The translations under genes and the position numbers were made by a program. The notes beneath the pieces are model-generated. The model saw only the letters and a program-made list of their open reading frames with translations, was not told the DNA's origin and ran no database searches. From a virus, in the IMG/VR virus record IMGVR_UViG_3300031857_000124, positions 4,496-68,495 of that record: a DNA stretch of 64,000 nt, one strand, 5' to 3'. Shown here in pieces: positions 2,338 to 44,212 of the stretch (the stretch's first letter is position 1; every line of letters begins with the position of its first letter).

Positions 2338-2368
2338 TTTGTTTTCAACAAATTGCGATAAAATTGCA

Positions 2369-2376
2369 TACATTTG
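2369..2376 (+). promoter_or_regulatory. Bacteroidota -7 promoter element (TACATTTG)
   Basis: Matches TAnnTTTG in the intergenic gap before the portal gene. Confidence 0.65.
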
Positions 2377-2401
2377 CAAGGAATAAATATTTTTGTTACA
2401 T

Positions 2402-4798
2402 ATGCTTCTACCTCAATTAGCTGGAGGGGTACTTTTCCCGAATGACAACATACCCGAGATTGACAAGCTGAAGCCAGACTTCGGTTTGCGTTGCGGGAGG
2501 GCTTTGTATTCTCGCTTTTGCGCGGGAGGAACATATTTTTCCATGGCTCAAATGCCAGAGATGCAGGAGGTCCGTAACTACGGGTCTGGAATGCAGTCCC
2601 CGGAAAAGTACAAGAACTGGTTCTCTAACGGATCCCCGATTGGTAACAAACAGGCGAAGCAGGGCGAGGCCGTTTCTTCCACACGCGGAATGACGAAGGC
2701 TCAAAGAAAGGCAATGGCAAACGTGAGTTACGACATCTTCTCTCCGATGAGAAAGATGACCAACGTTTTGTTGTCAATCCTTTCTGACAACGACTACAAG
2801 GTGGACTGCCTGTCCCTTGATAGATCTATAATAAATGTTAAAAAAACAGAGAAGGCCAAGGTAATCGCCAGAAACTCTGTTGTTAATCCGTTCCTGGAGT
2901 CTTTGGGCCTTAAAAAACTTTCTGTTCCGTTTGTTGCAAATGACCCAGCGACTGTTGAGGTGGCTGAAAGGCTTGGTTTTTTTAAGGCGAGGTATGAGGT
3001 CGCTCTTGAAAAGCTTGCTGAATCTGGTTTTAGGGCATCCAAGTGGCATGACCTAAGAATGAAAACGAACAGGGATGCTGTAGACTATCACTTCCGTGCG
3101 GCAAAGGTTTACAACGACGAGAAAACTGGACAGGTAAAGGTGAAGTACGTTGACCCAGCAAGGATGGTCATGCTGTGGAATGAGGACAACGAAAATGACC
3201 CTGTTGCTATTGGGCATATTGAGGTTGAGACCATTCAGTCTATTTACCCTAAGCTGAAGGAGGCGGGCTTCCCTGATGAACAAATACAGGCAATGGCCAA
3301 GTCATATGTTCCGTATCAAACTGACGTAAGCTCTATACCTGCGTGGGCGTTCGAGAGAAAAGATCCAACCACCAATAAATGGGTGTGGATGGACTTCAAG
3401 GTTTATGTTCTTAAGTTTGAGTACCTGTCAACAGACTACTCTCAATACGTTGAGAGGACTAACAAGCAGGGTGTAAGGACATTCTTAAAGAATAACAAGC
3501 CCGTAGACGAGAAAAAGAAAAGCCAAAGCGATGATTACCATGAGGTTTCATGCAACTATTGGTACGAGGGGTGCTACATAATCTCTGGCACAGGACAAGA
3601 TAAAATATACGATTGGCGCAAGAAGCCAAACCAAATGCAGAGCGGCCTTACGCCTAAGTGCTCCTATGTAATCGATAGGATTCTTGGTCAAAGTCCAACA
3701 AGAAGTGTTAAGGGTCTTCTTGACGATCTCATGTTTGCCGTCCTTAAACTGAGATCAGCAGTTTGGGCTGCTGCTCCGAAGGGATATAGAATAGATATAG
3801 GTGAGTCCGCCAACATTAAGATTGGCGGGGTGGAGTACGATCTTTTTGACTTGATGCACGTTCATCGCCAAAACGGTATTCTTGTTGCGGCAACAAAGTT
3901 TAATGCTGCAACAGGAAAGTATGTATCACAGCCATTGGTTGAAATGGATAACGGCCTTGGTCCACAGGGCCAGGAGTGGCTGAATCAAATAGCCAACATT
4001 CAGCTCATGATTAAGGACGTGCTTGGCATCCCTGATGCGATGGCTGCAAGTCCTGACCAGAGTGCAGAAAGACTTGTTGGTGTTATGGAGGCTGACTACA
4101 TTGCCGGTAACCACGCCAACTGGCCGCTCCGCGAGTCTGAAAGACGGTTTAAGGAGAAGATTGCAGAAAGAATAATTCACCAGGCAAGAATAGACATTCA
4201 ATTTGACAAAAAGATTGAAGAGTTTTATAGAGCCGTCATTGGGGAGAACCTTATAAACGCGCTTGTTGAGATACAGGATTTAACCCTTGATCAGTTAGCA
4301 ATTACCTGCAGGTCTCTTCCTAACGAAAAGGAAAAGAGCATGATCCTTCAGCGGGCAATACAGATGTCTCAAATCCCAACTAAGGATGGGTCTGTGCTGT
4401 TGTCTCCTTCAAGCATTGAAAGGGTTGCACAGATGCTCAAGAACGGGGATGTTGATGAGGCCCTTTGGTTTATGGCTAAGTCAGAGATTGATGCGAAGGC
4501 CCGTGAAGAGGCTCACGCTAAGGAAATGCTGCAGCAAACCATTCAGGGTCAACAGCAGACGGCAATGATGAGCGAGCAGGCAAAACTGCAATCAGCAATG
4601 CAGATGGCAGAAATAGACTTGAAGAAACAGGCACAGCTTTACAACCTTGAGTTAATGAAGGAGAAGGAGCTGCTTAAACTGAAGTCAGAAGACAACTACG
4701 ACCTTCAGCTTTTGAAGGGCGAACAGGTGCTTGAACAGATAAACTTAGAGGCCACACTTGAGTCTCAGTACGGAAACGAAATAACAGGAAGAGTATAA
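2402..4798 (+). CDS. Portal protein
   Basis: About 800 aa after terL, YVDPARM motif, Q/E-rich coiled-coil C-terminus, crAss-like gene order. Confidence 0.85.
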   Translation: MLLPQLAGGVLFPNDNIPEIDKLKPDFGLRCGRALYSRFCAGGTYFSMAQMPEMQEVRNYGSGMQSPEKYKNWFSNGSPIGNKQAKQGEAVSSTRGMTKAQRKAMANVSYDIFSPMRKMTNVLLSILSDNDYKVDCLSLDRSIINVKKTEKAKVIARNSVVNPFLESLGLKKLSVPFVANDPATVEVAERLGFFKARYEVALEKLAESGFRASKWHDLRMKTNRDAVDYHFRAAKVYNDEKTGQVKVKYVDPARMVMLWNEDNENDPVAIGHIEVETIQSIYPKLKEAGFPDEQIQAMAKSYVPYQTDVSSIPAWAFERKDPTTNKWVWMDFKVYVLKFEYLSTDYSQYVERTNKQGVRTFLKNNKPVDEKKKSQSDDYHEVSCNYWYEGCYIISGTGQDKIYDWRKKPNQMQSGLTPKCSYVIDRILGQSPTRSVKGLLDDLMFAVLKLRSAVWAAAPKGYRIDIGESANIKIGGVEYDLFDLMHVHRQNGILVAATKFNAATGKYVSQPLVEMDNGLGPQGQEWLNQIANIQLMIKDVLGIPDAMAASPDQSAERLVGVMEADYIAGNHANWPLRESERRFKEKIAERIIHQARIDIQFDKKIEEFYRAVIGENLINALVEIQDLTLDQLAITCRSLPNEKEKSMILQRAIQMSQIPTKDGSVLLSPSSIERVAQMLKNGDVDEALWFMAKSEIDAKAREEAHAKEMLQQTIQGQQQTAMMSEQAKLQSAMQMAEIDLKKQAQLYNLELMKEKELLKLKSEDNYDLQLLKGEQVLEQINLEATLESQYGNEITGRV

Positions 4799-11083: not shown

Positions 11084-11676
11084 TAACGAAGCGCCAAGCC
11101 ATAGAGTTAGTTCAGCACAGACTCACGGGCGGAGATATCCCCGAGGATGTTCGCAGGCTGTATCCTAGATCAATAATAGCAAGGATCATAAACTTTGCCC
11201 TTTCTGATATTGTGACCAGGGATCCGTATGCGGCATCAGACATGGCTGTTCCGTATTCTTTTGACGTGAAGTCTGATGAGAGGGGGTACTACGTGGAGAT
11301 GAATCCACAGCCCATGTCGGGTAGCTTTTCTATCTACACGGTTGAGGACCAGTCTGAGGCGGCAAGTGAATACCTTGTTCAAACGAAGGCGGAGTCATCG
11401 GCAATGAAGGTGTTAAGGGGGGCCAATAAAAGTGCTGCAGTTCTTTACAAGAACCTGCTCAGGTTCAACAAGAAGCCAACTGGTTCGGTTACGATCACTA
11501 TGATCCCTAATATATATCAGATGGAAGACGACGATATACTTGTTATTCCATCGGATGTGAATGGAGCTGGTGAGCTTGCCTTCTTTCAAATGTGCTTGCA
11601 GGCGCTTTCAAGCCAAGGGTTCCAGGATGACCTTAACAACAACTCTATAGACATTCAAGCGTTATCAAAGGGTTGA
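11080..11676 (+). CDS. Putative tail ring protein
   Basis: Translationally coupled ORF in the ring-protein cluster. Confidence 0.5.
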   Translation: MITKRQAIELVQHRLTGGDIPEDVRRLYPRSIIARIINFALSDIVTRDPYAASDMAVPYSFDVKSDERGYYVEMNPQPMSGSFSIYTVEDQSEAASEYLVQTKAESSAMKVLRGANKSAAVLYKNLLRFNKKPTGSVTITMIPNIYQMEDDDILVIPSDVNGAGELAFFQMCLQALSSQGFQDDLNNNSIDIQALSKG

Positions 11677-15400: not shown

Positions 15401-16736
15401 CTACAAGTCAAGGTTTGGAACCACGGCCCCTGGCTCTGTTGCGCTGCTCCCAAACGGCTCTATAGCGTACTTTGACCCGAACTCTGGGGTGTTTATCCTG
15501 TCTGACACCAACGGTCAGAACGTGATCAGTGAGATAGACCCTGCAAGCGGAAACGACTTTAAGTTCAAAACCGAGACCAAGCGGATTGCTACAGAGTACT
15601 CAAAAACGTCTGCATCTGACTGCCGTTCGTACGTGAACGAGCTTATGGGGGAGGTGGGATTTGCTTTTAAGCTGGTGAAGGACGACTCTGATTATTCTGG
15701 CGACATAGTGTTCGCCAACGAGGGCGCTTCGGTTTTCCTTGCCTCTGGAACATATGCTGAACTCGCCGGGTTTGTTGGTCGCCAAATAACGTTTTACATA
15801 CCAGTAGACGATCCTTTGGCTCCGCTTGTGACATTCACCACGTACATAGAGTTCGTCGAGGAGCCGGGCCTTATCGCACTGGGTATCGCAATATACATTC
15901 GGGATCAATTCCCTGTAGGGAACAATGTTGGTCAGGCAACGTATTACATTCACCCGGAAACAGAGGTGAAGCACGTTGTTTTCGATTACTTAAAAATGAG
16001 GTGGAGATCAACATACTACTACCCGTTCATGCACTTTGTCAACTACGGACAGCTTCTGTTTGGGTGGGGGGACGAGTCGGAATTCTTTAAACACAATCAG
16101 AGGGATTCTTTCACGTTCCACGATACCGAGTTTATTCAAAAGATAGCGTTTGTCTCCAACGAAGACCCGCTAAATGTAAAGAGGTATCAAAACTTTACTC
16201 AGCGCTCATCAAAGCCGTTTTTGGTTGAGGCAAGTTCAGAACCAAACCTCAGCTACACTAGCGGAATGTACACCTCCGTCCCAACATCAGAGATGGGGGT
16301 TTATGAGGGGTATGTAAGGGGTTACTACAAGAAGAACTTGTACGACCCCAAGTTTTTGAATTCAGCAGTCCCATCAACGTCTTTTGTTGGTATCGATCCC
16401 GACACGGGGGACCTCATCACGGGGTGGAATGTTGATGGTGATTACACGGGATTGCTTGGTGTGAATGTGGTGGTTGTTCAGGTTAACGGCAACTTTTTAG
16501 GGACGGTAACGTCTGCCGTTTACAACAGCATTACAAACACAACGTTTATAGAGACTAGCTACGGGAACCCTGTAGAAACAGGGGTTTCAGGGTACTTGTA
16601 CTCCGCCGATAAGGCCATGGCTGCTGGTGAAGACATGAGGTCGTACTACCTTACCCACGTGTTGAGTTATGACCCACTTTCAAACCAGAGCGGGGCACAA
16701 ATATTCAATGTTGGAATTAAGGGGATACTTTCATAA
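12426..16736 (+). CDS. Tail muzzle/nozzle (stabilisation) protein
   Basis: 1436 aa, N-terminal FAGGINTDDDPR..PKGDYR motif, beta-rich, follows the ring genes. Confidence 0.75.
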   Translation: MDFNEEIIFAGGINTDDDPRSIPKGDYRDMSYCRLGPVTGEGVAVITSWGTVNISNPELESRDVVIGATIWERNGGNSRSIVYFVCAYDGDHEVWVYDINSEAHSLALQSPELNFSVNFPVFHANTFDDILKFTDGRWDDQMYVDGDRVFNPPYQINLEKALSGFYTGVTLRTIDAIKWPPNPPYTQYITDVDRNDNKISKKLFKFCIQYIYENNEVSSWSMYSNLPLPDQSEFVTGSNWLRTNYDNGIAITFETGPKEIIGFNIAVQQFDESTGGAEGPFSVFAEFNKERDGISDNENYTVNFYGNVSTKVAVDFQKNYDRLPISARCQEYLPTSQVAYINFREGFDKIAIDSQSDYIIREVQWSAFANVWFTARWDGPGGGNLDTGVDAWNVTTEFPYSAGMVITLNGPTSIPILLSYIVTQQDIDAALALPTITDRNEYMIQLIGDSFMASLGQPAGTVSLVGTIFRYSFTPIASDINTTQSKLTRLNDARTSLKSGATHQFGIVYGDRAFRDGTVYTSDQMNLFVPFFYDIDRSSLSKEWNPFTINPKITIGHAPPVWADRYWIVAKPATEILSFGQYMVSVENIYANSAIVLDSASQDTRYKITLDNKYTNVYNIGATINHVPQKGDKLRFVRRRSPESWDNFSNTLGGYAEYVEVDVLDYLPTDGEGGRPVVYTSLFNINLIENFDSIDNPGGYIVEIYTPRPFVDDDGGLFISAWKDVTGSISVIDAHTPDRRHGAPYDYTAQCVEIAPFSYIFSMTSDRTNLVGQSFNLVLYYNDGSVETVNSEEIIDAEYRVEDNITYITFLNQDPLDTISYITLSYSSSQQVGVIASPAYIYPSYGDVYLRMRNFCTGYAGGAGMYYYYIEDPHYSDYWLSDVHNTGRTRIESPTFKMTHRKADAIHSNPYGGPNSTINGTSTFVLDNSNIIQMNPFHGEVTRAIMAGREGKTLKCLQPFKENSVYIQFYPNEVGSDSSVRVSKATFASWFDYKSRFGTTAPGSVALLPNGSIAYFDPNSGVFILSDTNGQNVISEIDPASGNDFKFKTETKRIATEYSKTSASDCRSYVNELMGEVGFAFKLVKDDSDYSGDIVFANEGASVFLASGTYAELAGFVGRQITFYIPVDDPLAPLVTFTTYIEFVEEPGLIALGIAIYIRDQFPVGNNVGQATYYIHPETEVKHVVFDYLKMRWRSTYYYPFMHFVNYGQLLFGWGDESEFFKHNQRDSFTFHDTEFIQKIAFVSNEDPLNVKRYQNFTQRSSKPFLVEASSEPNLSYTSGMYTSVPTSEMGVYEGYVRGYYKKNLYDPKFLNSAVPSTSFVGIDPDTGDLITGWNVDGDYTGLLGVNVVVVQVNGNFLGTVTSAVYNSITNTTFIETSYGNPVETGVSGYLYSADKAMAAGEDMRSYYLTHVLSYDPLSNQSGAQIFNVGIKGILS

Positions 16737-30500: not shown

Positions 30501-31249
30501 ACATCTCTGCTGATGGATACAAGAAGATGTCTGTAGCGGCCACGGGGCTTACAAGGTCTTTCCTTGATCAAACATTCCTTTCATCTGGAGAAGACTTCTT
30601 ATCAAGTGTGCTTGACTCAAGGGATAAGGACTTAGTTGACAATGTTCGTGATGCGGTTATTAAGACAGGAACTACTATTGTTGTTCCGGCCATCTACACT
30701 CAGACCGCTCAAAAGATTTCAGATATCATGGAAATCCCACAAAAAGAAATCCGTGATACGTACTTTGGTAGGGTGTTCAGGGACATCCCTGTTGCTCGGG
30801 ATAGGTACAATAATGTGATTAACGCCCTAGGAGATGAAGTTCCCTACGACTCTGACTTGCTAATTAGCTCTGACAAGGGTAAGCCAGAAGATAGGCTTTG
30901 GAACCTTGTTATTTCTAAAAAACAAACTATTGGCACACCTAAAGCGCCAGAAACGTATTTGGATAAGGATAATAACGAAGTTCAGTTAACCGAAGAGCAG
31001 ACGTACAGTTTCATGAAAATCAGGGGTTCGTACATTAAAAAAGCGCTAGAAGAGAACTACGACGCCCTTAGCAAGTTAAGCAATGCCGATTTCTCCAAGT
31101 ACTTAACAGGTTTAAAATCACAGGCTACAAGCATTGCTAAGTCTTCCTTCACCACAGAGCAAAAAGCGTTAGACAAGAAGATTGCTCGAGATCTAAAAGA
31201 ACAAAAGTGGAAAATTGAAGATATACTAGAAAAAAACGAATCTGAATAA
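27545..31249 (+). CDS. Large ejection/internal virion protein
   Basis: 1234 aa helical protein with ANMLSG..T, VVPFV and GWQPYSV motifs seen in large podovirus internal proteins. Confidence 0.65.
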   Translation: MANPCKITFKKTKDGKAKEYTYAEFMTALQDGLFQELVDGGLLNANKIPGENPFAAAAPKEQKGPSVKERKTITTIKNNPDISDKVKNAFSSDRINYNQLPNDVSVAEANAIIESLGMEEADKLAKTGNKDMPSAFRITLAQILIKKYNQAGEYGKAVDVAQDIAELATDYGQAIQALSLFARLTPEGALLAATRMVKKNKDRAVSKHKSKATEVKNTINKINKETAKQVAQVAQAEMERTTASVKMVDRPKTYGKKNKLVTLERYEKARAALKGKMFSAVVPPPELIEIAMFHIEAGARNFADFVKRMKEDFGERANDYLQPAYDEAVSRLDASEKQKAITSSVNKFGRLISEQLPRQADRRSKVEKLQELADQIDAETGNDAFNQILNDYKAILAQEQADNDAVKAQKKLDKLVAFMGTEAGIRKGLKEMNVRIGDLIKQHYSEVDATKEDLINKLVNEAGLTGVEADNLANKIQSEFETLVADKKRKAIERLMPKGPRTTARKEAFEKLVEASNIGAVDEAMVNDAIAEALGVPSSLTPEQAAKITELANAVQEAKTEREELRAIQNLLSYQQNINGISWFEVTQAVWMANMLSGWKTQTINMIANLYNTGALFANAALQRSTSRRLLVKGLAVGWKRGFFEGLDSLKTGYSPIRDKSEIPNILERVTFKGGKFNPVNYAKYVRRLMTAVDVLSFEGLRQMRSFQMAYKKAAAENEGFSSKELRDKALEILNRKDETLNAAIDQAKDERAVKEALLKDDFEDGKITKEEFMKQMDFAKTDERFRIHELIEEKRDSDIMIEAKDYAARGTFNHPPNGLLGLLSQYMNSAKREWPALNFVVPFVNVISNVANETLNYTPVGFARARKEGGTLTGLKPIQDWDAQKRTDLMIKATMGTGLMALTYLLTKLDDDDEEPVLEITTNGFNDFAKNKELMETGWQPYSVRVKNPVTGEYSPWFSYKTSPFMLGLSFIGSLGDAEKYLGEDISADGYKKMSVAATGLTRSFLDQTFLSSGEDFLSSVLDSRDKDLVDNVRDAVIKTGTTIVVPAIYTQTAQKISDIMEIPQKEIRDTYFGRVFRDIPVARDRYNNVINALGDEVPYDSDLLISSDKGKPEDRLWNLVISKKQTIGTPKAPETYLDKDNNEVQLTEEQTYSFMKIRGSYIKKALEENYDALSKLSNADFSKYLTGLKSQATSIAKSSFTTEQKALDKKIARDLKEQKWKIEDILEKNESE

Positions 31250-31275
31250 CTTTATCATCGTATATTTGCACCGCA

Positions 31276-31470
31276 ATGATAGTAGAGCACACTCAATCGT
31301 CTAACCCAATAGATTCAATCATCGCCATAGTCCTTACGGCATTTGCTGCCGTTGTGTCCTGGCAAGAACAGGCCGAGTGGGCGTTCCGTATTCTGTCATT
31401 AATGTTGGCATCTACAGTCTCTGTTGTTGTGCTTTTCGGCCACTACAAGAAGACAAAGAAGAAGAGGTAG
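31276..31470 (+). CDS. Small membrane protein, holin-like
   Basis: Two hydrophobic segments and a basic C-terminus. TATATTTG promoter element at 31261. Confidence 0.5.
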   Translation: MIVEHTQSSNPIDSIIAIVLTAFAAVVSWQEQAEWAFRILSLMLASTVSVVVLFGHYKKTKKKR

Positions 31471-31496
31471 TCTGTCTCCCAGCTATAAATAACAAA

Positions 31497-31520
31497 GGGG
31501 GGCAGCGTTTACTGTCCCCC
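31497..31520. terminator. Terminator hairpin
   Basis: GGGGGGCAG-CGTTTA-CTGTCCCCC, with the T-tract on the minus strand. Confidence 0.6.
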
Positions 31521-31738
31521 TCAAATGGTTTTGCCTCCCGGCATTTGCGCTAAACCGCGACAAATCTAATACAAAAAAGCTAAAAATCCTAATTAGCATT
31601 TATTTTAACAAAATAAATTTGACTAAGCATTAAATTGTGACTAATTTAGCCGCATTGGAATAAAGTTCAATGTCAATGTTTTGGTAGGTGATCAACTCCT
31701 GGGCAACGGCTCGGGAGTTGTTTTTTAAATGAACAATT

Positions 31739-32389
31739 ATGATACGAATAAAGATAGCCGACCCACTGTTCCCCGAGCTTTCGGAGTACAACCGATTACT
31801 TAGTGAGTTTAAGGGGCTGTTCCCCCACGTTTCAGTTACGGTCACAAGAAGGAGTTCTGATTACGCAATGTCCACTGCCTGTTTTACCGACTCCAGCACC
31901 GGCCGTATCGAAAGCTTCTTCTCAATCTACCCGCACTCCCCCAACGCCGCAGTTGGACAGGTTAAGGCCGATATAATGTCTGTGGTGCAGGGGATAAGGT
32001 CGTTTGGAGTCCCTGTTGAGTACATTGATTCGGTTCAAGAGCCGAGGGAGAGCCTTCACATAACAAGGGCAAGGCTGTCAGGGTGCGTGTCCATCAAGCA
32101 GATGGTGTCTATGCTGGAGGACGCTAACCACGAAAGGCTTCCGGAGGTGCTTTCATTCATTGAATCTAAGAGGGCATCGGGCGGCAGGCCGAGCAAGAGG
32201 TCTGTAGTTGATCTGATATTTTCGGGGGCTAAGGAGGAAAAGCGGGCGCAGCCAATGAGAACGGGGCTAGAGTGGGCGCAGGTCAAGTCCAGGTGGAAGG
32301 ACCGTTTTCACGACTCTAAATTTGCTAAAACATACAAAAGTCTTGATGAATTTTGTACCTTTGCCACTGACCAGGAGTGTTCGCAATGA
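31739..32389 (+). CDS. Hypothetical protein
   Basis: 216-aa ORF coupled to the tail fibre gene by an ATGA overlap. Confidence 0.6.
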   Translation: MIRIKIADPLFPELSEYNRLLSEFKGLFPHVSVTVTRRSSDYAMSTACFTDSSTGRIESFFSIYPHSPNAAVGQVKADIMSVVQGIRSFGVPVEYIDSVQEPRESLHITRARLSGCVSIKQMVSMLEDANHERLPEVLSFIESKRASGGRPSKRSVVDLIFSGAKEEKRAQPMRTGLEWAQVKSRWKDRFHDSKFAKTYKSLDEFCTFATDQECSQ

Positions 32390-36186: not shown

Positions 36187-36623
36187 AGGAAGAAGTAGAT
36201 GAATGCCGCTCCGGCGGTAGCTACCCCGGCATAGCATTTCCAGAAGATCTTTTTTCGGCGCTCTGACTTCATGGCGCTTGTTTCAGACTCAAGCCTCCTC
36301 TGTAGGTACTCGATGTTCTTTTCCAGAGACTCAATGGTTGCCCGATCGTTCTCCAAGGACTCAGAGCACAGCTTGTTGTTTTCTAGCGCAAGTTCAAGAG
36401 CCACCTCTGCTGCACGCAACTGCTCTTTGTACATTCGAATTCTCTCAGACCTCGCATCCAAGCTGATCTTGTCCTGACGGATTGTTTCTGCGGCTGCAGA
36501 CACAACCTCTTGAGCTTCCCTTGGAATCTTCGGAGCATCATTCACTTGGCTGAAGCCTGCCTGAGCGATACTCATTGAGAAGATAAGTCCAAGAATTGTT
36601 GTAAGTCTTCTGAAGTGAATCAT
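36183..36623 (-). CDS. Coiled-coil envelope protein, spanin-like
   Basis: Signal-like N-terminus (MIHFRRLTTILGLIF), coiled coil, C-terminal hydrophobic segment. Confidence 0.45.
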   Translation of the reverse strand: MIHFRRLTTILGLIFSMSIAQAGFSQVNDAPKIPREAQEVVSAAAETIRQDKISLDARSERIRMYKEQLRAAEVALELALENNKLCSESLENDRATIESLEKNIEYLQRRLESETSAMKSERRKKIFWKCYAGVATAGAAFIYFFL

Positions 36624-36936
36624 TGGATAGATGAGGTATTTGTGAAACAAATGTTCTGGAGTTCTTGATCCTGAGGAATTCCTGTTCCTCTCTCTGTTTA
36701 TCGTAGACGATAAAAGAGTCGATAGCAGCCTTGGTTTGGAGTACAACCTGAGTGTTTTGTTGCATCTCTTGGTAGTAGCCCTCATTGATTTCGCGGAGCC
36801 TTTCAATGGCAATCCTTTCGGTTTGGTTCTCAGTCCTCACCGATCCTATGTTGTAGACCAAGAAGAAGGTCCCAAACAGGACAGCCACAACCAGGGCAAG
36901 GATGATCAGTGTGTATATGTTTTTCGTCTTGTCCAT
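36538..36936 (-). CDS. N-anchored coiled-coil protein, spanin-like
   Basis: N-terminal TM plus coiled coil, overlaps the neighbouring gene next to the endolysin. Confidence 0.45.
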   Translation of the reverse strand: MDKTKNIYTLIILALVVAVLFGTFFLVYNIGSVRTENQTERIAIERLREINEGYYQEMQQNTQVVLQTKAAIDSFIVYDKQREEQEFLRIKNSRTFVSQIPHLSNDSLQKTYNNSWTYLLNEYRSGRLQPSE

Positions 36937-37093
36937 AGTACAAATTTACTCAAAATTTGCATACCCCAAGTCTTCCCACACAGGAGATTCGTTCATTGTT
37001 TTTTTTCTTGCAAATTTAATGGTATTCCCGCAGGTATTCTTGCAAGAAGTTCACTACCTTTGATGTAGCACATTCACAGTGCGTATAATTAAT

Positions 37094-37609
37094 ATGCCAA
37101 GACGGAACTCAAGAACGCGGTCTAACACGGTAAGGAAGGCCGGCCCCAAGAAGGGGAGCGGTGGGAAAATAAGATCCACACAAAAGATTGTTGATGGCAT
37201 ACAGTTCAAGTCAATGCTTGAGGTGTTCACTTACAGAAAGCTGCTTGAGTATGAACTCAGGTTTGAGTATGAAAAGAAACGGTTCGTGGTTATGCCTGGG
37301 TTTGACTACCCTGAGTGTTCGTGGGAAAGCAAACCAAGTGGGGACTACGAGGACAAGGGGCATGGAAGGGTGAGGGACATTACCTACACCCCGGACTTTG
37401 TGGGGTATGATTTGCACGGCAATATGCAGTGGGTTATAGAGTGCAAGGGCTTCGCCAACGAGCGCTTCCCCAACACGTGGAAGCTGTTTAAGCAGACCCT
37501 TATCCGGGAGGGGAATCCTGTTCCGCTGTACCTCCCAAAAAACCAAAAGCAGGTGCTTGAATCGATTGAGAAAATATTGCTCTTAGGCAATCCAACCCCT
37601 CTCCCTTGA
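37094..37609 (+). CDS. PD-(D/E)xK endonuclease, endonuclease I/resolvase-like
   Basis: FKSMLE, YTPDF and IECKG motifs. Confidence 0.75.
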   Translation: MPRRNSRTRSNTVRKAGPKKGSGGKIRSTQKIVDGIQFKSMLEVFTYRKLLEYELRFEYEKKRFVVMPGFDYPECSWESKPSGDYEDKGHGRVRDITYTPDFVGYDLHGNMQWVIECKGFANERFPNTWKLFKQTLIREGNPVPLYLPKNQKQVLESIEKILLLGNPTPLP

Positions 37610-37954
37610 TTCTTTAGGGTGTCGTTCTACATACTCGTGGCAGTTCCTACACAGGGCCATCCATGTTTTAACGTTTAAGTAGTTCTGACCCCTCCTGTGT
37701 ACGTGGTGTACGTCAGTGGACCTCAAGAAGCATCCTTGCAGATTTAGTTTGCACTGCGGGTGGTTTTTGAGGAACACATCACGAAGTGCGTAGTACGCCC
37801 TGTCTTCTTTCTTCTTCTTTTCGCTTACCTTGTTTATCCTGTTTTTAGTTCCATGGGCGATCTTGCACTCCGTGTTACCACAGGTGACTTCCATGGTGCT
37901 GTACTTTGGGGTAAATGGTGCTTTGCACACCCTACACAACTTTGCTTTTTTCAT
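37583..37954 (-). CDS. HNH-type nuclease (NinG-like N-terminus)
   Basis: CRVC...C...C zinc motif, DVHH and LCRNCH. Confidence 0.7.
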   Translation of the reverse strand: MKKAKLCRVCKAPFTPKYSTMEVTCGNTECKIAHGTKNRINKVSEKKKKEDRAYYALRDVFLKNHPQCKLNLQGCFLRSTDVHHVHRRGQNYLNVKTWMALCRNCHEYVERHPKESRERGWIA

Positions 37955-39183
37955 AGGTGTTTCGGCAAAGAAACTTATTCATCTTTAGTGAATGGGAGGA
38001 ATTGCCGCCTCAAAGTTAAATTAAATTTTGGTATTTCAAACGAATGAACTATATTTGTTCCGTGAAACTGACATTGCAGATAAAATTGCTGCCTGATAAT
38101 AAACAGGCAAATGCTCTCAAAGATACTTTGAAGGAGTGTAATACCGCCTGTAATGAAATTTCCAAACGGTGTTTTGAGAAAAAGATTTGGGGGCAATATA
38201 GAATCCATCACGAAGTTTACTATTCTGTAAAATCCTCTTTCAATCTTTCCTCTCAAATGGTTGTAAGATGTATTTCTAAGGTTGCTGACAGCTACAAGTT
38301 GGATAAGAAGGTTCAACGAATATTTAAGCAGTTTGGCAGCATTGCTTATGATAGCAGGATTCTTACCTATAAACAATCCGAAGTATCTATTTGGACTGTT
38401 GAAGGTAGATTGAAAATTCCTTTTGTTTGCCACAACCCCCAATACATTCCATACATTAAAGGCGAAGCGGATTTGGTTTACAAGAAGGGTAAATTTTACA
38501 TTTTTCAAACTGTTGAAGTTCCCGAAGAAGATATAAAAGATATTGAGGAATTTATCGGTTGCGATTTTGGACAAACAGATATTTGCACTCTGTCCGATGG
38601 CACTAATTTTAATTCTGAACAACTTAAAAAGATTCGTAAAAAATATTCTAAAGTAAGAGCTTCGGTTCAATCCAAAGGCACTAAAGGAAGCAAGAAACTT
38701 CTGAAACGGCTTGGCGGGAGAGAACGAAGATTCGCTACAATTTCTAACCATACAGTTAGTAAACAGATAGTAGCTAAAGCCAAAGAAGAAAATAAAGGCA
38801 TAGCTATTGAGGATTTGAGTAAAATTAGATTTACCGCAAAGCCAAAAAGCAAAGCACAAAAGACAGAACTTAACCGTTGGAGCTTCTATCAGCTTCGTCG
38901 ATTTCTGACATACAAAGCGTTGCTTAATGGCATTAAACTTGCGGTAATTCCACCTGCTTATACTTCTCAAACTTGCTCTGTTTGTTTGCATATTGGTAAA
39001 AGAGTAGCGAAAAAATTTACTTGTGAAAACTGCGGAAATATTTCTGATGCAGACGAAAACGCTGCTAAGAATATTTCTGCATGGGGTGTCGCTGTAAATA
39101 CGCCCGAAAAGAATAATATGTTTTGCTCTCTGCATTCGTGTTAATTCTTAAGCCTATTGGTCTTTAGCCAATGGGTAGTTTAC
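37955..39183 (+). mobile_element. IS200/IS605-family, TnpB-only (IS1341-like) element
   Basis: Related subterminal hairpins with TCTTTAG loops at 37974-37996 and 39153-39175, AT-rich interior. Removing it restores a TGA-A-ATG gene junction. Confidence 0.85.
38044..39144 (+). CDS. tnpB: RNA-guided endonuclease TnpB
   Basis: RuvC I GCDFG, RuvC II AIEDL, zinc finger TSQTCSVC...CENC, RuvC III DADENAAKN. Catalytic D-E-D is intact. Confidence 0.93.
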   Translation: MNYICSVKLTLQIKLLPDNKQANALKDTLKECNTACNEISKRCFEKKIWGQYRIHHEVYYSVKSSFNLSSQMVVRCISKVADSYKLDKKVQRIFKQFGSIAYDSRILTYKQSEVSIWTVEGRLKIPFVCHNPQYIPYIKGEADLVYKKGKFYIFQTVEVPEEDIKDIEEFIGCDFGQTDICTLSDGTNFNSEQLKKIRKKYSKVRASVQSKGTKGSKKLLKRLGGRERRFATISNHTVSKQIVAKAKEENKGIAIEDLSKIRFTAKPKSKAQKTELNRWSFYQLRRFLTYKALLNGIKLAVIPPAYTSQTCSVCLHIGKRVAKKFTCENCGNISDADENAAKNISAWGVAVNTPEKNNMFCSLHSC

Positions 39184-39200
39184 TTCAGTTTTTTGGAAAT
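39030..39200 (+). ncRNA. Putative omega/reRNA (boundaries approximate)
   Basis: Expected overlap with the tnpB 3' end and right-end hairpin. The guide would begin at 39184. Confidence 0.5.
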
Positions 39201-39616
39201 TCAGTTCCTCCCCCCACAGGCTCTGGCTCATTAATTTTTTTGAAGTGCCTTGCGTAAATGGCGTTGGTGTACTCTTCCGCCCATGTGACCACGTCTTCTT
39301 CGTGGTTGTCTACATCCCAACTGTGTATCAGTAAAGACATATGGATCATTTCGTGGTTAATCAGGGTAACATCCCGGTAATCACCGTGCAGTGCGGATCT
39401 GTTAATAAATACAAAGGGCAAAGGATCGGTATTCAACAGGGTGTCCTTAGGATCGTAGTTGGCAAAACCATCTATGTAGGTACCCCCCTCAGCTATCCTG
39501 TTAATACATTCGATCTTGCTGACCCCGTGCATCTCCTGGACACTGTAGTAATCAAACAGTTCTACGGCATTATTCCCAATGAGTAGAACAAACTGTGCAT
39601 AGTATATCACTTCCAT
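39185..39616 (-). CDS. HExxH metallopeptidase-like protein
   Basis: INHEMIH followed by a downstream EE. Confidence 0.55.
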   Translation of the reverse strand: MEVIYYAQFVLLIGNNAVELFDYYSVQEMHGVSKIECINRIAEGGTYIDGFANYDPKDTLLNTDPLPFVFINRSALHGDYRDVTLINHEMIHMSLLIHSWDVDNHEEDVVTWAEEYTNAIYARHFKKINEPEPVGGGTEFPKN

Positions 39617-39770
39617 TCTGTCAAGTTATATGTTTACTTTTTATAGCCCTATACTGAAATTTATATCCATCTCCACTCTGTCTATCTTGTATGAATTTAA
39701 TTCTTCCTATCTACTGTTTTTGGATATAGGAGGAAGGTTTTATTCGCCTATATGTAAGTTAGCGGTAATG

Positions 39771-40100
39771 CTACCACGCATCCATAACGACATCGCAACT
39801 GTCAAACTTTTGTTTAGTCCAATCTATTGAGCCATTATTATCTACCCATACCGCTTTTTGTTTACAATAAATCTTTATACCATCAACTCTCAACTGATGA
39901 ACCACATCTTCCATTTCCTCATCACTCATATTATTTGCAGGTTTTATACTTTCCTTTACAAAAGTTTGAAGTTGCTTTTGTTCTTCGCAGTTACACACAT
40001 ATCTACTGCGTTGTTTGCTTCCACATCCTGAAAGCACTACCGCTAACAACAAACTTGCAAAAGCAAGGGTTAATCGGTTAATTGAAAATCTGTTTTTCAT
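39771..40100 (-). CDS. Lipoprotein (cassette gene)
   Basis: MKNRFSINRLTLAFASLLLAVVLSG-C lipobox signal, A-rich start context. Confidence 0.7.
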   Translation of the reverse strand: MKNRFSINRLTLAFASLLLAVVLSGCGSKQRSRYVCNCEEQKQLQTFVKESIKPANNMSDEEMEDVVHQLRVDGIKIYCKQKAVWVDNNGSIDWTKQKFDSCDVVMDAW

Positions 40101-40173
40101 TTTGATATTTGTTTTTAAGTTAAAAATTTGTACTTCTAAATCCTTTCCTTCGCAAGTTTGCAAAACGTTATAA
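40041..40173. repeat. attC-like palindromic site (133 bp)
   Basis: CGCTAAC..AAACTTGC...GCAAGTTT-GCAAAAC-GTTATAA. Confidence 0.7.
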
Positions 40174-40608
40174 GTAATTTTTTACAAATTCCGACATTTC
40201 AACCAAAGAGGCATCTCTCCTTCCTGTATTTGCAAATACTGTAGTTAAAACAATGTTATCTTTTTTATATCCAATACTATTATCTAATCTATCTAAACTT
40301 GGTTTTCTCAATTTGTCTTTTAATGTAAAGTCTATAGGTATATTTAACCAATAACACATACCGTTTTGTTTGTTTTTTAAGTGTTCTAAAAAAGCACCAT
40401 TTATTTTATCATCAACATCGTGTACTTTCTTATTCCTACCATCTGGCAATTTTTGATTTTTAGCCTTCCTTGATGATAATGTTGACATTAACCTATATTT
40501 CCAATTTGAATTATAACAAACTTTACATTGCCCTCTTTGTTTGCCATTGCCTCTACTTGAATATTCAGCTAACGGTTTTAATACTTTACACTCTATACAT
40601 TCTTTCAT
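40168..40608 (-). CDS. HNH/endonuclease VII-like protein (cassette gene)
   Basis: CIEC...CKVC zinc motif and PSLDRLDNSIGYKKDNIVL. Confidence 0.7.
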   Translation of the reverse strand: MKECIECKVLKPLAEYSSRGNGKQRGQCKVCYNSNWKYRLMSTLSSRKAKNQKLPDGRNKKVHDVDDKINGAFLEHLKNKQNGMCYWLNIPIDFTLKDKLRKPSLDRLDNSIGYKKDNIVLTTVFANTGRRDASLVEMSEFVKNYL

Positions 40609-40630
40609 AATTATATCAATTTAAAACTAC

Positions 40631-40685
40631 TTATAACAGCACATTGGCGGCATTAAAACGACCGCCAATCTGCAAAACGTTAGCT
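40631..40685. repeat. attC-like palindromic site (55 bp)
   Basis: TTATAAC-AGCAC-ATTGGCGG...CCGCCAAT-CTGCAAAAC-GTTAGCT. Confidence 0.7.
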
Positions 40686-40731
40686 GCTATTTTGGGACAA
40701 CCCCTCAACTTTTCTTGTTGATTTAGATCAA

Positions 40732-41049
40732 TCAAAACGGCACCCCGTCGCTTTCGTAGACATACTCTCCCACAAGCTCTCTTCTGCCGGAATTATTGAT
40801 CTTGGTTAATATACTGTTTTCTGAGTCTGTTTCGTACCAGAACGCTACCGGCTCTCCCTGACTTTCATCCGGGTCAGGTAGCAATGTAATATTTTCCGGG
40901 ATGTAGACATACGACTTCCCGGCCTTTCTGCAGGCCAAGGCTTCCTTGCAAACAACTGTCAGGCTGTTCCCGGGAGGAGGAGTCCCTCCGCCAGAAAAGA
41001 TAGCCATGATGTCCTTGGTTTTGATTATTGGGACCGTGATTTTTGTCAT
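40732..41049 (-). CDS. Hypothetical protein
   Basis: Coupled ORF in the leftward operon. Confidence 0.6.
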   Translation of the reverse strand: MTKITVPIIKTKDIMAIFSGGGTPPPGNSLTVVCKEALACRKAGKSYVYIPENITLLPDPDESQGEPVAFWYETDSENSILTKINNSGRRELVGEYVYESDGVPF

Positions 41050-41555
41050 ACGATGATCTTGATTTTGCTGACGTGATCCATTATTGGATACCCCATATTG
41101 GTCAGGATTTCAAACACCTGATCGGCAACAGCCCGAAAAGCTTTTTCGACACTGTACTTCTTCACAAAGGTTTTGTTCTCCACATGACCGATGGTGCAGT
41201 ACGCTTTCTTGTACTTGAATTTGTCCCCGAGTTTTTGTTGCGAGAACTTGGGGTACAGTTTTCTCATGGACCATATTGCAATGTGACGAGCCCTGACGTA
41301 ATTCGCCTCATTGGTTTTTCCATCGGTGATGTCTTCCTGCGGAATAAGGGTCACCAGACTGACTGCTGATAGCACGTCTGCCCATACGTTCATTGCCGGG
41401 ATCTTTGATACGTCCTCGATTCTTTTCTGCACGATGTCGATCTGTTTGTATATCTCGAATTCGTACTCGGACTTTGCGATCTTCGCAAGGTCTGTCAACA
41501 TTTCCATTCTGTGGTTGGGATGGCAGAAGGCCACCATTCTTTCGATCTCTCTCAT
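41046..41555 (-). CDS. DnaA domain IV-like HTH protein (paralog 1)
   Basis: RARHIAIWSMRK..FSQQKLG..F..YCTIGH resembles the DnaA C-terminal domain. Confidence 0.6.
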   Translation of the reverse strand: MREIERMVAFCHPNHRMEMLTDLAKIAKSEYEFEIYKQIDIVQKRIEDVSKIPAMNVWADVLSAVSLVTLIPQEDITDGKTNEANYVRARHIAIWSMRKLYPKFSQQKLGDKFKYKKAYCTIGHVENKTFVKKYSVEKAFRAVADQVFEILTNMGYPIMDHVSKIKIIV

Positions 41556-41556
41556 C

Positions 41557-41805
41557 TTATTCGATTGTTTTGTTGATTACCATTGATTTTGGAACCACGA
41601 TCCCATTGGACAGCATAAGCTCCCCGCGCATAGGGTAGGCTCTCCACACGGACAGCGTGTCTTTGTAGATCACGACTCTTTTGCCAACAAGAGGCTCCAT
41701 GAATTCTCGTTCTGTCTTGATGCCATTTGAGATGTGATGGCAGATGAATATGACCCCTGCGAATATCATTCCGATTGTCAAAAATGCGATAAGTTTGAGT
41801 TTCAT
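41557..41805 (-). CDS. Small membrane-anchored protein
   Basis: N-terminal TM segment. Confidence 0.55.
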   Translation of the reverse strand: MKLKLIAFLTIGMIFAGVIFICHHISNGIKTEREFMEPLVGKRVVIYKDTLSVWRAYPMRGELMLSNGIVVPKSMVINKTIE

Positions 41806-41816
41806 ATTTGTGTGTT

Positions 41817-42077
41817 TTAATTTTCCATTTCAATCCAGTTCACCCGGTCCTTCTTAAGGCATTCGAGGATCGTGTTTCTCAGGCTGCGGGCGTTCGCTTC
41901 TCCCATGATTGCGACATCACTTGGATGCAGAAGAATGTCGTCTACGACCGTCCCGTTCATTTGCCTGAGAAGCTCGAAGTCCCACTCACACTTTTCTTCT
42001 ATGCCGTCAAAGCAAGCTATAACCTTGCCCTTGTGGTAGTCAGCCTTTTTGTAGGCTCTTTTATTCAGTTGTATCAT
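41817..42077 (-). CDS. Hypothetical protein
   Basis: ORF tiled within the operon. Confidence 0.55.
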   Translation of the reverse strand: MIQLNKRAYKKADYHKGKVIACFDGIEEKCEWDFELLRQMNGTVVDDILLHPSDVAIMGEANARSLRNTILECLKKDRVNWIEMEN

Positions 42078-42080
42078 GTG

Positions 42081-42590
42081 TTAAATTATGATGTGCATTT
42101 TATTTACGTGAATAAGTATTGAGTAGCCCTTGGACTCAAGTATTTCGCAGGCCTGTAGCATGAGCGTTCTGAAGGATTTCTCTGTAGCGTAGAGGCTTGG
42201 CACGGACTTGTTCTCAACATGGCTGACGGTGCAGTGCTTTCGTGGGTGGTCAAACATATTCCCCAAGTTGGTCTGCGAGAAGTGCGGGGCCAGCTTCCTC
42301 ATAATCCAAATCGCGATGTGTCTTGGCCTTGCGTACTCCCTCTCGCGAGAGTGTGCCGACGTGATTAGATCCACAGGGACAAAGGTCACCTCACTGACCG
42401 CAGACAGTATGTCGTTCCACACGTCTTTGGGGGACATGGATTCGGGGGGCGTCGGGGCCTGTTGATCAGCATTAATCTGCCGATAAATTTCAAACTCAAA
42501 TTCGGGCTTGGCAACTTTCGCAAGTGTTGCCAGCATCTCGGCCCTGTGCGGGTATCGGCAAAAGGCTACTAAAGTTTCAATCTCGTTCAT
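42081..42590 (-). CDS. DnaA domain IV-like HTH protein (paralog 2)
   Basis: SREREYARPRHIAIWIMRK..FSQTNLG..F..RKHCTVSH, aligns end to end with 41046-41555. Confidence 0.65.
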   Translation of the reverse strand: MNEIETLVAFCRYPHRAEMLATLAKVAKPEFEFEIYRQINADQQAPTPPESMSPKDVWNDILSAVSEVTFVPVDLITSAHSREREYARPRHIAIWIMRKLAPHFSQTNLGNMFDHPRKHCTVSHVENKSVPSLYATEKSFRTLMLQACEILESKGYSILIHVNKMHIII

Positions 42591-42689
42591 TTTTTTAGTG
42601 TTTAAAGTGTTTGTTTTTTAGGGTTGTACATTGCTGCGTAACGTTATGACTTTACAATTTTGTTTGTTTTGTCAAGGTTTTACTTGACT

Positions 42690-42793
42690 TGGTTACCGGG
42701 ACAGGATTCGAACCTGTATGATAAGTAACTTTAAGACCCTGTTGTAAACTTATCTCATCTTGGGTCAGCGTCTACCAATTCCGCCACCCGGTA
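42690..42793 (-). ncRNA. tRNA-like RNA (Leu-type body, aberrant anticodon arm)
   Basis: Acceptor TACCGGG/CCCGGTA plus A-CCA, D arm GCGGAATTGGTAGACGC, T arm ACAGG-TTCGAAT-CCTGT. No 7-nt anticodon loop. Confidence 0.8.
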
Positions 42794-42872
42794 AAATCAA
42801 CCCAGACCAACAACGGAAGCAAGAGTGTTCAAGCCGCCTCTCGACTTATATTGTTGCGGTCCGGGTCGAGAA

Positions 42873-43025
42873 TTAAATTTTGTACAACTCGTCTCCCGTT
42901 TCTTCGTAGAGCTTACTCATCAGTTGTCTCATTTTGGCGCTGTCTTCTATTGACGGACGAATCGACCTTCTTGCAGTCAACACAAACAGTTGCCGATGCA
43001 TTTCTCTTACCTCTTCTGATGCCAT
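42873..43025 (-). CDS. Small hypothetical protein
   Basis: ATG preceded by the A-rich sequence CAAAACAA. Confidence 0.5.
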   Translation of the reverse strand: MASEEVREMHRQLFVLTARRSIRPSIEDSAKMRQLMSKLYEETGDELYKI

Positions 43026-43036
43026 TTGTTTTGTAA

Positions 43037-43228
43037 TTAAGGTTTCAAGTACTTCCAGGTCCCCGCAACGGCCGGAATCATCAGTACATAAATCGCGATC
43101 TTCATCGCTCCATCGGAGAGTTCGGCGAAAGAAAGGAAGAGGATTATCACCACTATACAGCAAAGTATGGTGAACATCCCCCTCCCAGCTTCCTTCATTC
43201 CTCTCCCGAAATCGTCAAGGTACGACAT
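43037..43228 (-). CDS. Small two-TM membrane protein
   Basis: Hydrophobic ORF downstream of a minus-strand TATATTTG near 43270. Confidence 0.55.
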   Translation of the reverse strand: MSYLDDFGRGMKEAGRGMFTILCCIVVIILFLSFAELSDGAMKIAIYVLMIPAVAGTWKYLKP

Positions 43229-43390
43229 GGGTTTGATCTTTAATTCTAGATGTCTTGCAATTTTTTGCAAATATAAATCTATATGCGTTGTTTGTGCAAA
43301 TTATTTAACATTTAATGTTAAGAACTCCTAGATAATTTTCGGATCAATTCAAAAAAAATATAGGTTTTTTCGGTTTTTGTTTTACATTTG

Positions 43391-43492
43391 CTGCGTTCTC
43401 ACATTGCAGTGTTTGACGGCAGTGCAATGCGGGATGTAAGATCAAAATCTTACCCTGAAATGCCCTTGGTCCGTCAAACAAGGGCTTTTTTT
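43391..43492 (+). promoter_or_regulatory. Structured leader/attenuator with loop-loop complementarity
   Basis: Promoter element TACATTTG at 43383. Hairpin loop TTTGACGG is complementary to terminator loop CCGTCAAA. Confidence 0.7.
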
Positions 43493-44212
43493 ATGCCTAA
43501 GCGCACAGAAATATCAAGTATAATCTCAAGCGACACACTGTTTTCGAACGTAGAAAACATAAAGTGGCTTGAGAGGTTCGTTGAGTTCAAGCGGGCATTC
43601 CCAAACTCCGTGATATATAAATACTCTGCCTACCGAGTTGAAAAACTTGGGAGGTTAAAAATGTCACGTAACACAATCAAGAACACGATAGACAAGTTCA
43701 TCGAGCTTGGTTGGGCAACAAAGAATAAATCTCACCTCATTTTAATATCTAAAAACAAATTGTCTGCGCTCTATGGGGCAAAATCTCATAGAAAAATCAA
43801 ATTAGACACAACCCTATCCGTTAAGATTCAATTACAAGCAAAGGTGTTTAGCAGAGCCATCAATCGCTCTCGCTATGGTAAGTGCATGCAGGAAGTACAA
43901 GGTAAAAGCATCAGGCGTAAATACGCTAAATCACTCAGTGGCACTCCGCAGGAACTTTCTAGCAAAAAGATTGGGAAAATTTTTAACTCATCACAAACTC
44001 AAGCTCTAAGGGTGGTAAGAAGTCTGGAGAACAATGGGTGGATCACTGTACAACGGCAAAAACTCAAACATTTGGGTAAGTGTTCAGCCAAGCAGTGGCA
44101 GTTCAGAAAGGCGTGGTGGAACAAGAAGGAAAGTGTCGACAACTGCTTTTGGCATTTGGGGCATTTCTTCCATCTTCCATCTAATTCTTACCTCATGAAT
44201 AGCATACCCTAA
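43493..44212 (+). CDS. Basic tandem winged-helix DNA-binding protein
   Basis: Two HTH-like segments (MSRNTIKNTIDKFIELGW and SSQTQALRVVRSLENNGWI). Confidence 0.6.
   Translation: MPKRTEISSIISSDTLFSNVENIKWLERFVEFKRAFPNSVIYKYSAYRVEKLGRLKMSRNTIKNTIDKFIELGWATKNKSHLILISKNKLSALYGAKSHRKIKLDTTLSVKIQLQAKVFSRAINRSRYGKCMQEVQGKSIRRKYAKSLSGTPQELSSKKIGKIFNSSQTQALRVVRSLENNGWITVQRQKLKHLGKCSAKQWQFRKAWWNKKESVDNCFWHLGHFFHLPSNSYLMNSIP

Follow-up and report, generated by a model that had tools for sequence, protein, structure and literature searches.

A probable integron-like cassette array without a recombinase in a phage genome from IMG/VR

The subject of this report is a short island of genes in a 64,000-nucleotide stretch of phage DNA, referred to here as the window (bases 4496 to 68495 of the 68,495-bp IMG/VR virus record IMGVR_UViG_3300031857_000124, which CheckV rates as complete). 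We conclude, with a probability of roughly 0.75, that positions 39759 to 40679 of the window are an array of two gene cassettes, lacking a recombinase, that belongs to an integron-like gene-capture system of Bacteroidota phages. A first-pass annotation made from the sequence had read the island as an integron-like cassette array with no integrase in view, and that reading is supported. The evidence comes from the anatomy of the island, a family of related hairpins with covarying stems, a rule that ties the two ends of each cassette together, the linkage of similar arrays to a recombinase in other phages, and an insertion at the tetranucleotide TAAC in a pair of cultured phages.

Anatomy of the island

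Every gene between 39185 and 41555 is carried on the minus strand, the gene-sense strand of the descriptions below. The island lies between open reading frames (ORFs) of 143 amino acids (39185-39616) and 105 amino acids (40732-41049). Its G+C content, 0.27 to 0.37 over about 39600-40650 against 0.44 to 0.48 in the flanks, bears out its earlier description as AT rich. Its main features are as follows.

39759-40167, minus: cassette 1, the lipoprotein gene with the long hairpin site that precedes it; bordered by TAA|C as read on the gene-sense strand, or G|TTA on the plus strand, the presumed point of exchange
40168-40679, minus: cassette 2, the endonuclease VII/HNH-like gene and its upstream short hairpin site; same layout in loci L005 to L007
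39771-40103, minus: lipoprotein ORF, 110 amino acids, ATG at 40103, lipobox LSGC
40168-40608, minus: endonuclease VII-like or HNH-like ORF, 146 amino acids; matches phrog_1035 (endonuclease VII), E = 9.3e-16, and phrog_3322, E = 3e-15
39758-39772, minus: 3' arm of cassette 1, immediately following the TAG stop codon; partner of 40033-40047
40033-40047, minus: 5' arm of cassette 1, GTTAGCGGTAGTGCT on the sense strand, within the signal-peptide codons
40167-40181, minus: 3' arm of cassette 2, ending in TAAC on the sense strand and overlapping the last codons of the ORF; partner of 40623-40637
40623-40637, minus: 5' arm of cassette 2, GTTATAAGTAGTTTT on the sense strand
40634-40682, minus: short hairpin site E1, 49 nt, consisting of TAAC, G, a 4-nt bulge, stem, GTTTTAAT loop, stem, T and GTTA (covariance model R1)
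40044-40170, minus: long hairpin site E2, 127 nt, with a TAACGTTTTGCA head and a TGTTA tail as in E1 (repeat finder and centroid fold)

Both pairs of inverted arms were recovered by a repeat finder at the positions first given for them, each 15 nt long with one mismatch. The mismatch falls at arm position 11 in both pairs and is a G.T wobble on the gene-sense (minus) strand; read on that strand, the 5' arms follow GTTA-nnn-G-Y-A-G-T and the 3' arms A-T-T-R-C-nnn-TAAC. In 297,961 bases, GTTA-led 15-nt inverted pairs with no more than one mismatch occurred five times, against a mean of 0.8 in 20 block shuffles of the same DNA. Two of the five are in the island, and the other three are one sequence in L005 to L007.

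The first-pass annotation had each gene bracketed by its own pair; the lipoprotein pair brackets the gene body and not the whole gene, because its inner arm (40033-40047) lies inside the ORF, in the signal peptide. The TAAC...GTTA palindromes are likewise where they had been placed, with lengths of 127 and 49 nt instead of 133 and 55, and the 4-nt asymmetry of their arms reappears as a one-sided 4-nt bulge in the fold of the short site. The cassette borders proposed at G|TT (39758/39759, 40167/40168 and 40679/40680) agree with the likely exchange point derived from three independent sources: the recombinase-side junction in related arrays and the insertion in a cultured phage, both described below, and the two window ORFs, which are complete only with these borders. 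In the 146-amino-acid ORF, the stop codon TAA is itself the TAA of the conserved TAAC.

The repeat finder also returned a 31-nt direct repeat centred on the 12-mer TGCAAAACGTTA, whose only two exact copies, in the window as in the 68.5-kb genome as a whole, are at 40159 and 40671. With a one-mismatch site at 15787 included, there are three matches where 0.45 are expected, a count that none of 100 shuffles reached. E1 is the only strong match in window and genome to R1, the covariance model of the hairpin family (59.7 bits, E = 3e-13); the remaining window matches have E values of at least 0.38 and were treated as chance. As expected of a model of short sites, R1 does not detect E2. As DNA, the sense strand of E1 folds to -12.4 kcal/mol (z = -3.0) and its plus strand to -10.7 kcal/mol (z = -2.0). 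The 22-nt arms of E2 (40050-40071 and 40139-40160) are 82% complementary, with the lipoprotein start in the loop, and the start codon and first 18 to 19 codons of that gene fall within the site.

The endonuclease VII match listed above agrees with the earlier call of an HNH-like gene, and a Pfam search with the same ORF gave no match. The lipoprotein ORF matched no Pfam family and had a weak match to phrog_2316 (E = 0.0012). Two further features lie at the ends of the array.

39740-39757, minus: array end, TAAC followed by TTACATATAGG, with no hairpin; similar, as judged by eye, to the TAAC|TA..TATAT junction found before the recombinase gene of related arrays
40679-40693, minus: orphan 3' arm, AAAATAGCAGCTAAC on the sense strand, upstream of E1 and with no 5' partner in the window

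Nearly the same arms as those of the orphan form a complete pair in a cassette of another locus, L132.

The hairpin family, its arms and a linked recombinase

The pattern TAACG-N(10-22)-GTTTTAAT-N(9-18)-TGTTA, scanned over IMG/VR, was found in at least 117 loci, often with several matches on one strand of one contig, and 87 non-redundant sites with a stem of at least seven pairs were present among the matches listed. R1 was built from an alignment of 87 distinct hairpins, which was de-duplicated separately and includes matches from genome_contigs. Across this alignment the core TAAC and GTTA letters and the GTTTTAAT loop are invariant or nearly so, and 11 of the 12 stem pairs are changed on both sides. 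Cells with such double changes number 283, against 102.5 +/- 9.7 after shuffling (0 of 500 shuffles were as high), and 89.8% of stem cells are paired, against 33 to 49% when the partners are slid. The non-Watson-Crick cells comprise 82 G.T and 16 A.C, a bias implying that the gene-sense strand folds better. Hairpins are near-identical within one genome while the arms differ on both sides of them, and long sites like E2 are common in related arrays.

The same pattern found 31 stemmed sites in 28 loci of bacterial genome contigs. Where titles were seen, these contigs are nearly all Bacteroidota (Flavobacteriales, Bacteroidales and Chitinophagales), which supports the earlier attribution to Bacteroidota for the hairpin family and is no proof of the host of this phage. 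When searched with blastn against GenBank phages, a common hairpin had one match, at 404155-404206 of the uncultured 462-kb phage LR756500.1, and the window's own hairpin had none.

The arm rule extends beyond the window. A partner of the 13-nt arm that ends in TAAC and has no true mismatch was found downstream of 19 of the 87 sites, against 1 of 87 in an upstream control; with one mismatch allowed, the counts were 34 and 5. Across all loci analysed there are 112 bracketed one-gene units with 13-nt arms and a median length of 263 nt, spread over 49 loci, against 2 in reversed sequences, and the complementarity of a cassette's leading end to its own site, claimed originally for the window, is therefore family-wide. 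The G.T wobble at arm position 11 was a requirement of the filter and hence is present in all 112. Eight of these cassettes lie within 6 kb of one locus, L051. The longest ORF is on the sense strand defined by the arms in 108 of the 112, the TAA of TAAC serves as the stop codon in 31, and in 53, including the window lipoprotein, the ORF starts upstream of GTTA, inside the long version of the hairpin. A pattern search derived from the window arms matched only its four source arms and so is not an independent test.

In two loci, L095 (sense 1770-2210) and L107 (sense 1440-1580 and 2380-2520), adjacent cassettes share a leader of about 30 codons with different gene bodies behind GTTA. This shared leader is encoded by the loop and 3' stem of long hairpin sites.

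The cargo is diverse. The cassettes encode 102 distinct proteins, eight of them with a Pfam family (four being N6_N4 methyltransferases), and the only three families with two or more members hold 7 of the 102, in keeping with the expectation that the palindromes recur next to unrelated genes. Relatives of the window endonuclease are encoded in 23 IMG/VR loci. In three identical-looking loci, L005 to L007 (66% protein identity), the gene again stands behind a short hairpin with the TAAC...GTTTTAAT...GTTA frame and a different, compensated stem, and its arms are one position off those of the window, changed on both sides. The next gene in these loci, an N6/N4 DNA methyltransferase, has the arms GTTAGTGGCAGTGCT and AGCATTGCCACTAAC, which are the arms of the window lipoprotein with two compensated changes and the wobble kept. 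Because the lipoprotein gene and the L005 methyltransferase gene read this shared arm in different frames, its conservation is that of nucleic acid and not of protein. More distant relatives of the endonuclease, in L008 to L017, adjoin a DNA polymerase gene and have no arms.

The first-pass annotation had called for a tyrosine recombinase acting on the array, and a candidate is encoded in related phages. In the first five hairpin-bearing records, four encode a tyrosine recombinase (265 to 274 amino acids), as do 3 of 27 further records (275 to 281 amino acids); the 19 control records, pattern matches without a stem, include three with longer enzymes of 308 to 561 amino acids. All seven short recombinases (265 to 281 amino acids, in 7 of the 32 hairpin-bearing records) are encoded about 0.4 to 2.5 kb from a hairpin and, except for one at 39%, are 65 to 79% identical to one another. 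In seven of eight distinct recombinase loci, L154 being the exception, the TAAC of the last cassette precedes the recombinase gene by about 35 to 110 nt, on the same strand, and is followed by TA..TATAT and no hairpin, forming the TAAC|TA..TATAT junction that precedes the gene.

By its sequence this recombinase is Xer-like and not an IntI. Its best NCBIfam model is XerA-type (184 to 194 bits, under the cut-off of 220), it scores 151 to 159 bits with the integron-integrase model TIGR02249 (cut-off 265), and Pfam assigns it Phage_integrase and Phage_int_SAM_4. The closest solved structure is the archaeal XerA-type 4a8e (E = 1.4e-37), followed by VchIntIA in two pieces; the recombinase has 29 residues where VchIntIA (2a3v) has 77. 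The open PMC and bioRxiv literature yielded nothing on cassette arrays tied to an Xer-type recombinase in phages.

A homologue with 43% identity is encoded at 301-1089 (plus strand) of L198, a contig from an Aquimarina sp. isolate, a cultured bacterium. A bracketed cassette of 1432 nt (1132-2606, minus strand) is convergent to this gene, with its TAAC end about 40 nt away. In L086, a 309-kb record rated complete and without a full-length PF00589 match, positions 11354-11446 encode a 31-residue match to the recombinase N terminus, which may be a decayed recombinase gene.

Mobility of the cassettes and competing explanations

The clearest sign of movement comes from two cultured sister phages of Polaribacter. 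R1 finds five sites on the gene strand of phage P12002L, by three methyltransferases and a Mom-like gene, together with one partial match on the opposite strand. Its sister P12002S carries an extra 918 nt, made up of one hairpin and one methyltransferase gene, and the two genomes are 98.6 to 99.3% identical on either side of it. The before-and-after pair is as follows.

L281, P12002S record, 30720-31637: the insert
L280, P12002L record, about 32224-32295: the empty site

TAACGT stands at both junctions of the insert and is uninterrupted in P12002L. The inserted unit reads C-hairpin-GTTA-gene-TAA. The exchange must then fall in TAAC(GT), where the sense-strand hairpin has its 5' foot; on the other strand this is G|TTA, the border drawn in the first-pass annotation. 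In a second case, a 231-nt cassette is 88% identical in loci L144 and L133, with identity running from TTGTTA to TAAC between unrelated flanks. A 281-nt indel between L123 and L124, the only clean one between related metagenomic loci, was considered and set aside, being not bounded by family sites.

Four metagenome runs were examined as contigs, which drop rare variants and in which stretches without cover prove nothing. Depth rises sharply over the short hairpin (296 against 2 to 23 in other covered bins, run X14), and at 40632 and at 40679-40693 contigs pass over into other sequence; the short hairpin therefore also occurs in other contexts in those communities. Contigs from runs X12 and X13 differ from the window by 11 substitutions and 2 indels, all confined to the loop of E2 (40074-40122) around the lipoprotein start, and neighbouring contigs equal the window.

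Read along the gene-sense strand, each cassette is made up of C, a folding hairpin site, GTTA and the 5' arm, one gene, and a 3' arm with TAA at its end. TAAC and GTTA, the invariant termini of the site, are the counterparts of AAC and GTT in attC. In the excised circle both arms would flank the cassette's own hairpin and make its stem 13 to 15 bp longer, which would account for the bracketing of each gene by its own inverted pair. The substrate would be the folded single gene-sense strand and exchange would most likely take place at TAA|C, its 5' foot, with the short Xer-like tyrosine recombinase encoded directly downstream of arrays in related phages as the likely catalyst. The window cassettes might be frozen or might be moved in trans, for example by a co-infecting phage.

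Several results weigh against the cassette-array interpretation. The window genome has no PF00589 or PF00239 match and hence no tyrosine or serine recombinase, which makes the island a two-cassette orphan array. A recombinase is likewise absent from 25 of the 32 hairpin-bearing records, including G016 to G019, G028 and G029, which CheckV rates as 93 to 100% complete. No more than 34 of the 87 sites, those counted above, have a partner within 3 kb when one mismatch is allowed, and the P12002 cassettes break the arm rule. Strict exchange at one point should keep the hairpin with its cassette, but the L144 and L133 copies have different upstream hairpins, as do the copies of a methyltransferase cassette, about 88% identical, shared by P12002L and P12002S; this would mean rapid replacement of hairpins, or else exchange at more than one point. 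The contigs of the four metagenome runs showed neither a cassette-sized deletion nor a circle junction. No close relative of the window phage was found with which gain or loss at its sites could be compared: blastn of 36500-44000 against GenBank phages gave nothing, the 105-amino-acid flanking gene had no relative, and for the 143-amino-acid flanking gene the similarity to L027 and L028 ends at 39616, with unrelated DNA upstream. Mobilisation of the window cassettes in trans, like any activity in the window phage, is therefore an inference. Finally, the wobble bias and the strict co-orientation with genes would fit an RNA structure equally well.

This last point leads to the most probable of the alternatives, that polycistronic mRNA is where the hairpins and the arms that span genes do their work, by controlling its processing, stability or translation, and that they are conserved for a function in RNA and not for DNA recombination. 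Of the stem cells that are not Watson-Crick pairs, 82 read G.U on the gene-sense strand and 16 do not, every signature arm pair is G.U at position 11 on that strand, though the filter required it, the loop sequence is conserved, cassettes are co-oriented with their genes in 108 of 112 cases, and 53 of 112 ORFs begin inside the upstream element. An RNA function leaves unexplained the TAAC-bounded insertion in the sister phage, cassette homology that ends exactly at GTTA and TAAC, and the tight, ordered linkage to a tyrosine recombinase. Moreover, no Rfam family matched 37500-41500, and terminator-like sites numbered two against 1.3 +/- 1.2 expected, neither of them at E1, where a terminator-like T tract is absent. 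We consider a purely RNA-level explanation unlikely; roles in RNA and in DNA recombination are not exclusive.

Slightly less probable again is gene swapping by ordinary homologous recombination between repeated intergenic hairpins, with no dedicated recombinase, as proposed for the PeSL elements of T4-type phages (PMC2839356, PMC4122927). The 25 records without a recombinase, the near-identity of hairpins within a genome that has differing arms on both sides, and the occurrence of the same cassette behind different hairpins would all fit. Exchange within a repeat, however, creates no cassette-specific complementary arms and does not fix junctions at one tetranucleotide, and the recombinase, when present, has a fixed place at the array end. 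Sigma-70-like promoters were not enriched (8 against 6.5 +/- 3.1 expected), and the sites have no T-tract terminator.

That the cassettes are genuine attC cassettes, which a bacterial IntI integron in the host supplied and services, is very improbable. The AAC...GTT ends, the imperfect palindrome with its one-sided bulge and the complementarity of each cassette to its own end are those of classical cassettes, and IntI1 is reported by Qi et al. 2023 (PMC9892861) to integrate a P12002L attC site. Every array-side recombinase, though, is Xer-like by the scores and the 29-residue segment given above, and the genes lie on the opposite strand relative to the polarity of classical sites. To our knowledge, 13- to 15-nt arms and a conserved loop are not features of attC. 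The least probable alternative, ordinary morons plus a homing endonuclease in an acquired island rich in AT, with inverted repeats that match by chance or serve as local terminators, would fit the low G+C content, the free-standing HNH/endonuclease VII-like gene and its armless relatives beside a DNA polymerase gene in L008 to L017, and is already contradicted by two arm pairs within 1 kb where shuffles give about 0.8 per 298 kb, by the 59.7 bits of E1 against a family model with stem covariation, and by the same architecture with compensatory changes in L005 to L007.

Relation to known systems and neighbouring features

The cassette array resembles integrons and CALINs in many respects. It has one-gene cassettes with imperfect palindromic sites between them and conserved AAC and GTT ends, and the first bases of a cassette complement its own site (over 15 nt in the window arms, with one wobble). 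The cargo is highly varied, most of it has no known function, and DNA methyltransferases appear in it repeatedly. In related phages the array adjoins the gene of a tyrosine recombinase from the Xer/IntI branch, beside a distinct terminal junction, and orphan arrays without a recombinase occur. Like attC, the sites are hairpins with AAC...GTT ends, covariation in 11 of 12 stem pairs and, in E1, a one-sided 4-nt bulge. The TAAC|TA..TATAT junction before the recombinase gene in seven of eight related loci may correspond to attI, and the window array ends in a similar sequence without a recombinase. With family sites E1 and E2 512 nt apart and no recombinase in the genome, the island would be a candidate CALIN, a class formally defined by the attC model of IntegronFinder.

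There are also differences from integrons. The recombinase lacks the IntI-specific insertion, falls under the integron-integrase cut-off and is encoded downstream of the cassettes in the same orientation. The genes lie on the folding strand with the site 5' of each gene, and the ORFs point towards the recombinase, opposite to those of classical cassettes; about half of them start inside the site. The arms of 13 to 15 nt with their position-11 G.T wobble and the conserved GTTTTAAT loop are further distinctions. The system works like an integron, and membership fails by the IntI criterion and by gene orientation.

Phage attC clusters without an integrase have already been published. Qi et al. 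2023 (PMC9892861) describe a screen of 10,705 NCBI phage genomes with IntegronFinder and HattCI that found 17 such clusters, one of them in P12002L with two methyltransferases, and report that IntI1 recombined one P12002L attC site into attI1. The tested site is likely to be one of the five R1 sites of this phage.

PeSLs (PMC2839356, PMC4122927) combine a sigma-70 promoter with a terminator stem-loop in T4-type phages, where homologous recombination shuffles orphan genes. They share with the present sites a location in variable regions of phage genomes as repeated intergenic stem-loops that flank small orphan genes, and are credited there with gene shuffling and mini-circles. PeSLs recombine by homology at variable points (PMC2839356), whereas the junctions here are at one tetranucleotide; the sites here have cassette-specific arms and a linked recombinase and lack a promoter or terminator signature.

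In sequence and length the array-side recombinase is most similar to Xer recombinases (XerA-type 4a8e; XerD, 1a0p). Folded single-strand substrates are known for Xer enzymes in connection with filamentous phages. The sites described here differ in being hairpins of 45 to 130 nt arranged in arrays, and no dif-type core site was noticed, with no search aimed at one.

In the usual view, integrons belong to bacteria and require a special domain of IntI. A broader proposal, which we hold at a little under even odds, is that Bacteroidota phages, from 30-kb siphoviruses to genomes of more than 300 kb, share a gene-capture system of their own in which a short Xer-type recombinase without the IntI domain swaps one-gene cassettes at the foot of sense-strand hairpins. 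The loops would often give the start codon and leader peptide to an incoming gene body, and orphan arrays would be serviced in trans at co-infection, amounting to a phage-to-phage market in methyltransferases, nucleases and surface lipoproteins. Such a system would represent integron logic without the IntI domain, in virulent and very large phages and with cargo of the phage-host arms-race type. It would explain the gene-by-gene turnover of variable regions in these phages and extend the range of recombinases that are known to work on folded DNA. Tools that depend on IntI would miss the recombinase-linked arrays and label the remainder as stray attC clusters; the Polaribacter phages P12002L and P12002S offer cultured test beds.

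Two sets of neighbouring genes complete the description of the locus. A TnpB-type ORF of 366 amino acids adjoins the island at 38044-39144 (plus strand), in a patch of 35% G+C; it matches the Cas12f1-like TNB family (E = 2.7e-22), with OrfB_IS605 under its cut-off. It is followed by a hairpin of 10 pairs at 39152-39176, with no TnpA in view, and looks like a solo insertion of the IS200/IS605 type. No association of a TnpB gene with the hairpins was noticed in other loci, where no search was aimed at it. On the other side of the island, two paralogues of 169 amino acids with a DnaA C-terminal helix-turn-helix are encoded on the minus strand at 41046-41555 and 42081-42590, with two small ORFs between them, and score 28.1 bits (under the cut-off) and 42.4 bits (over it) with PF08299.

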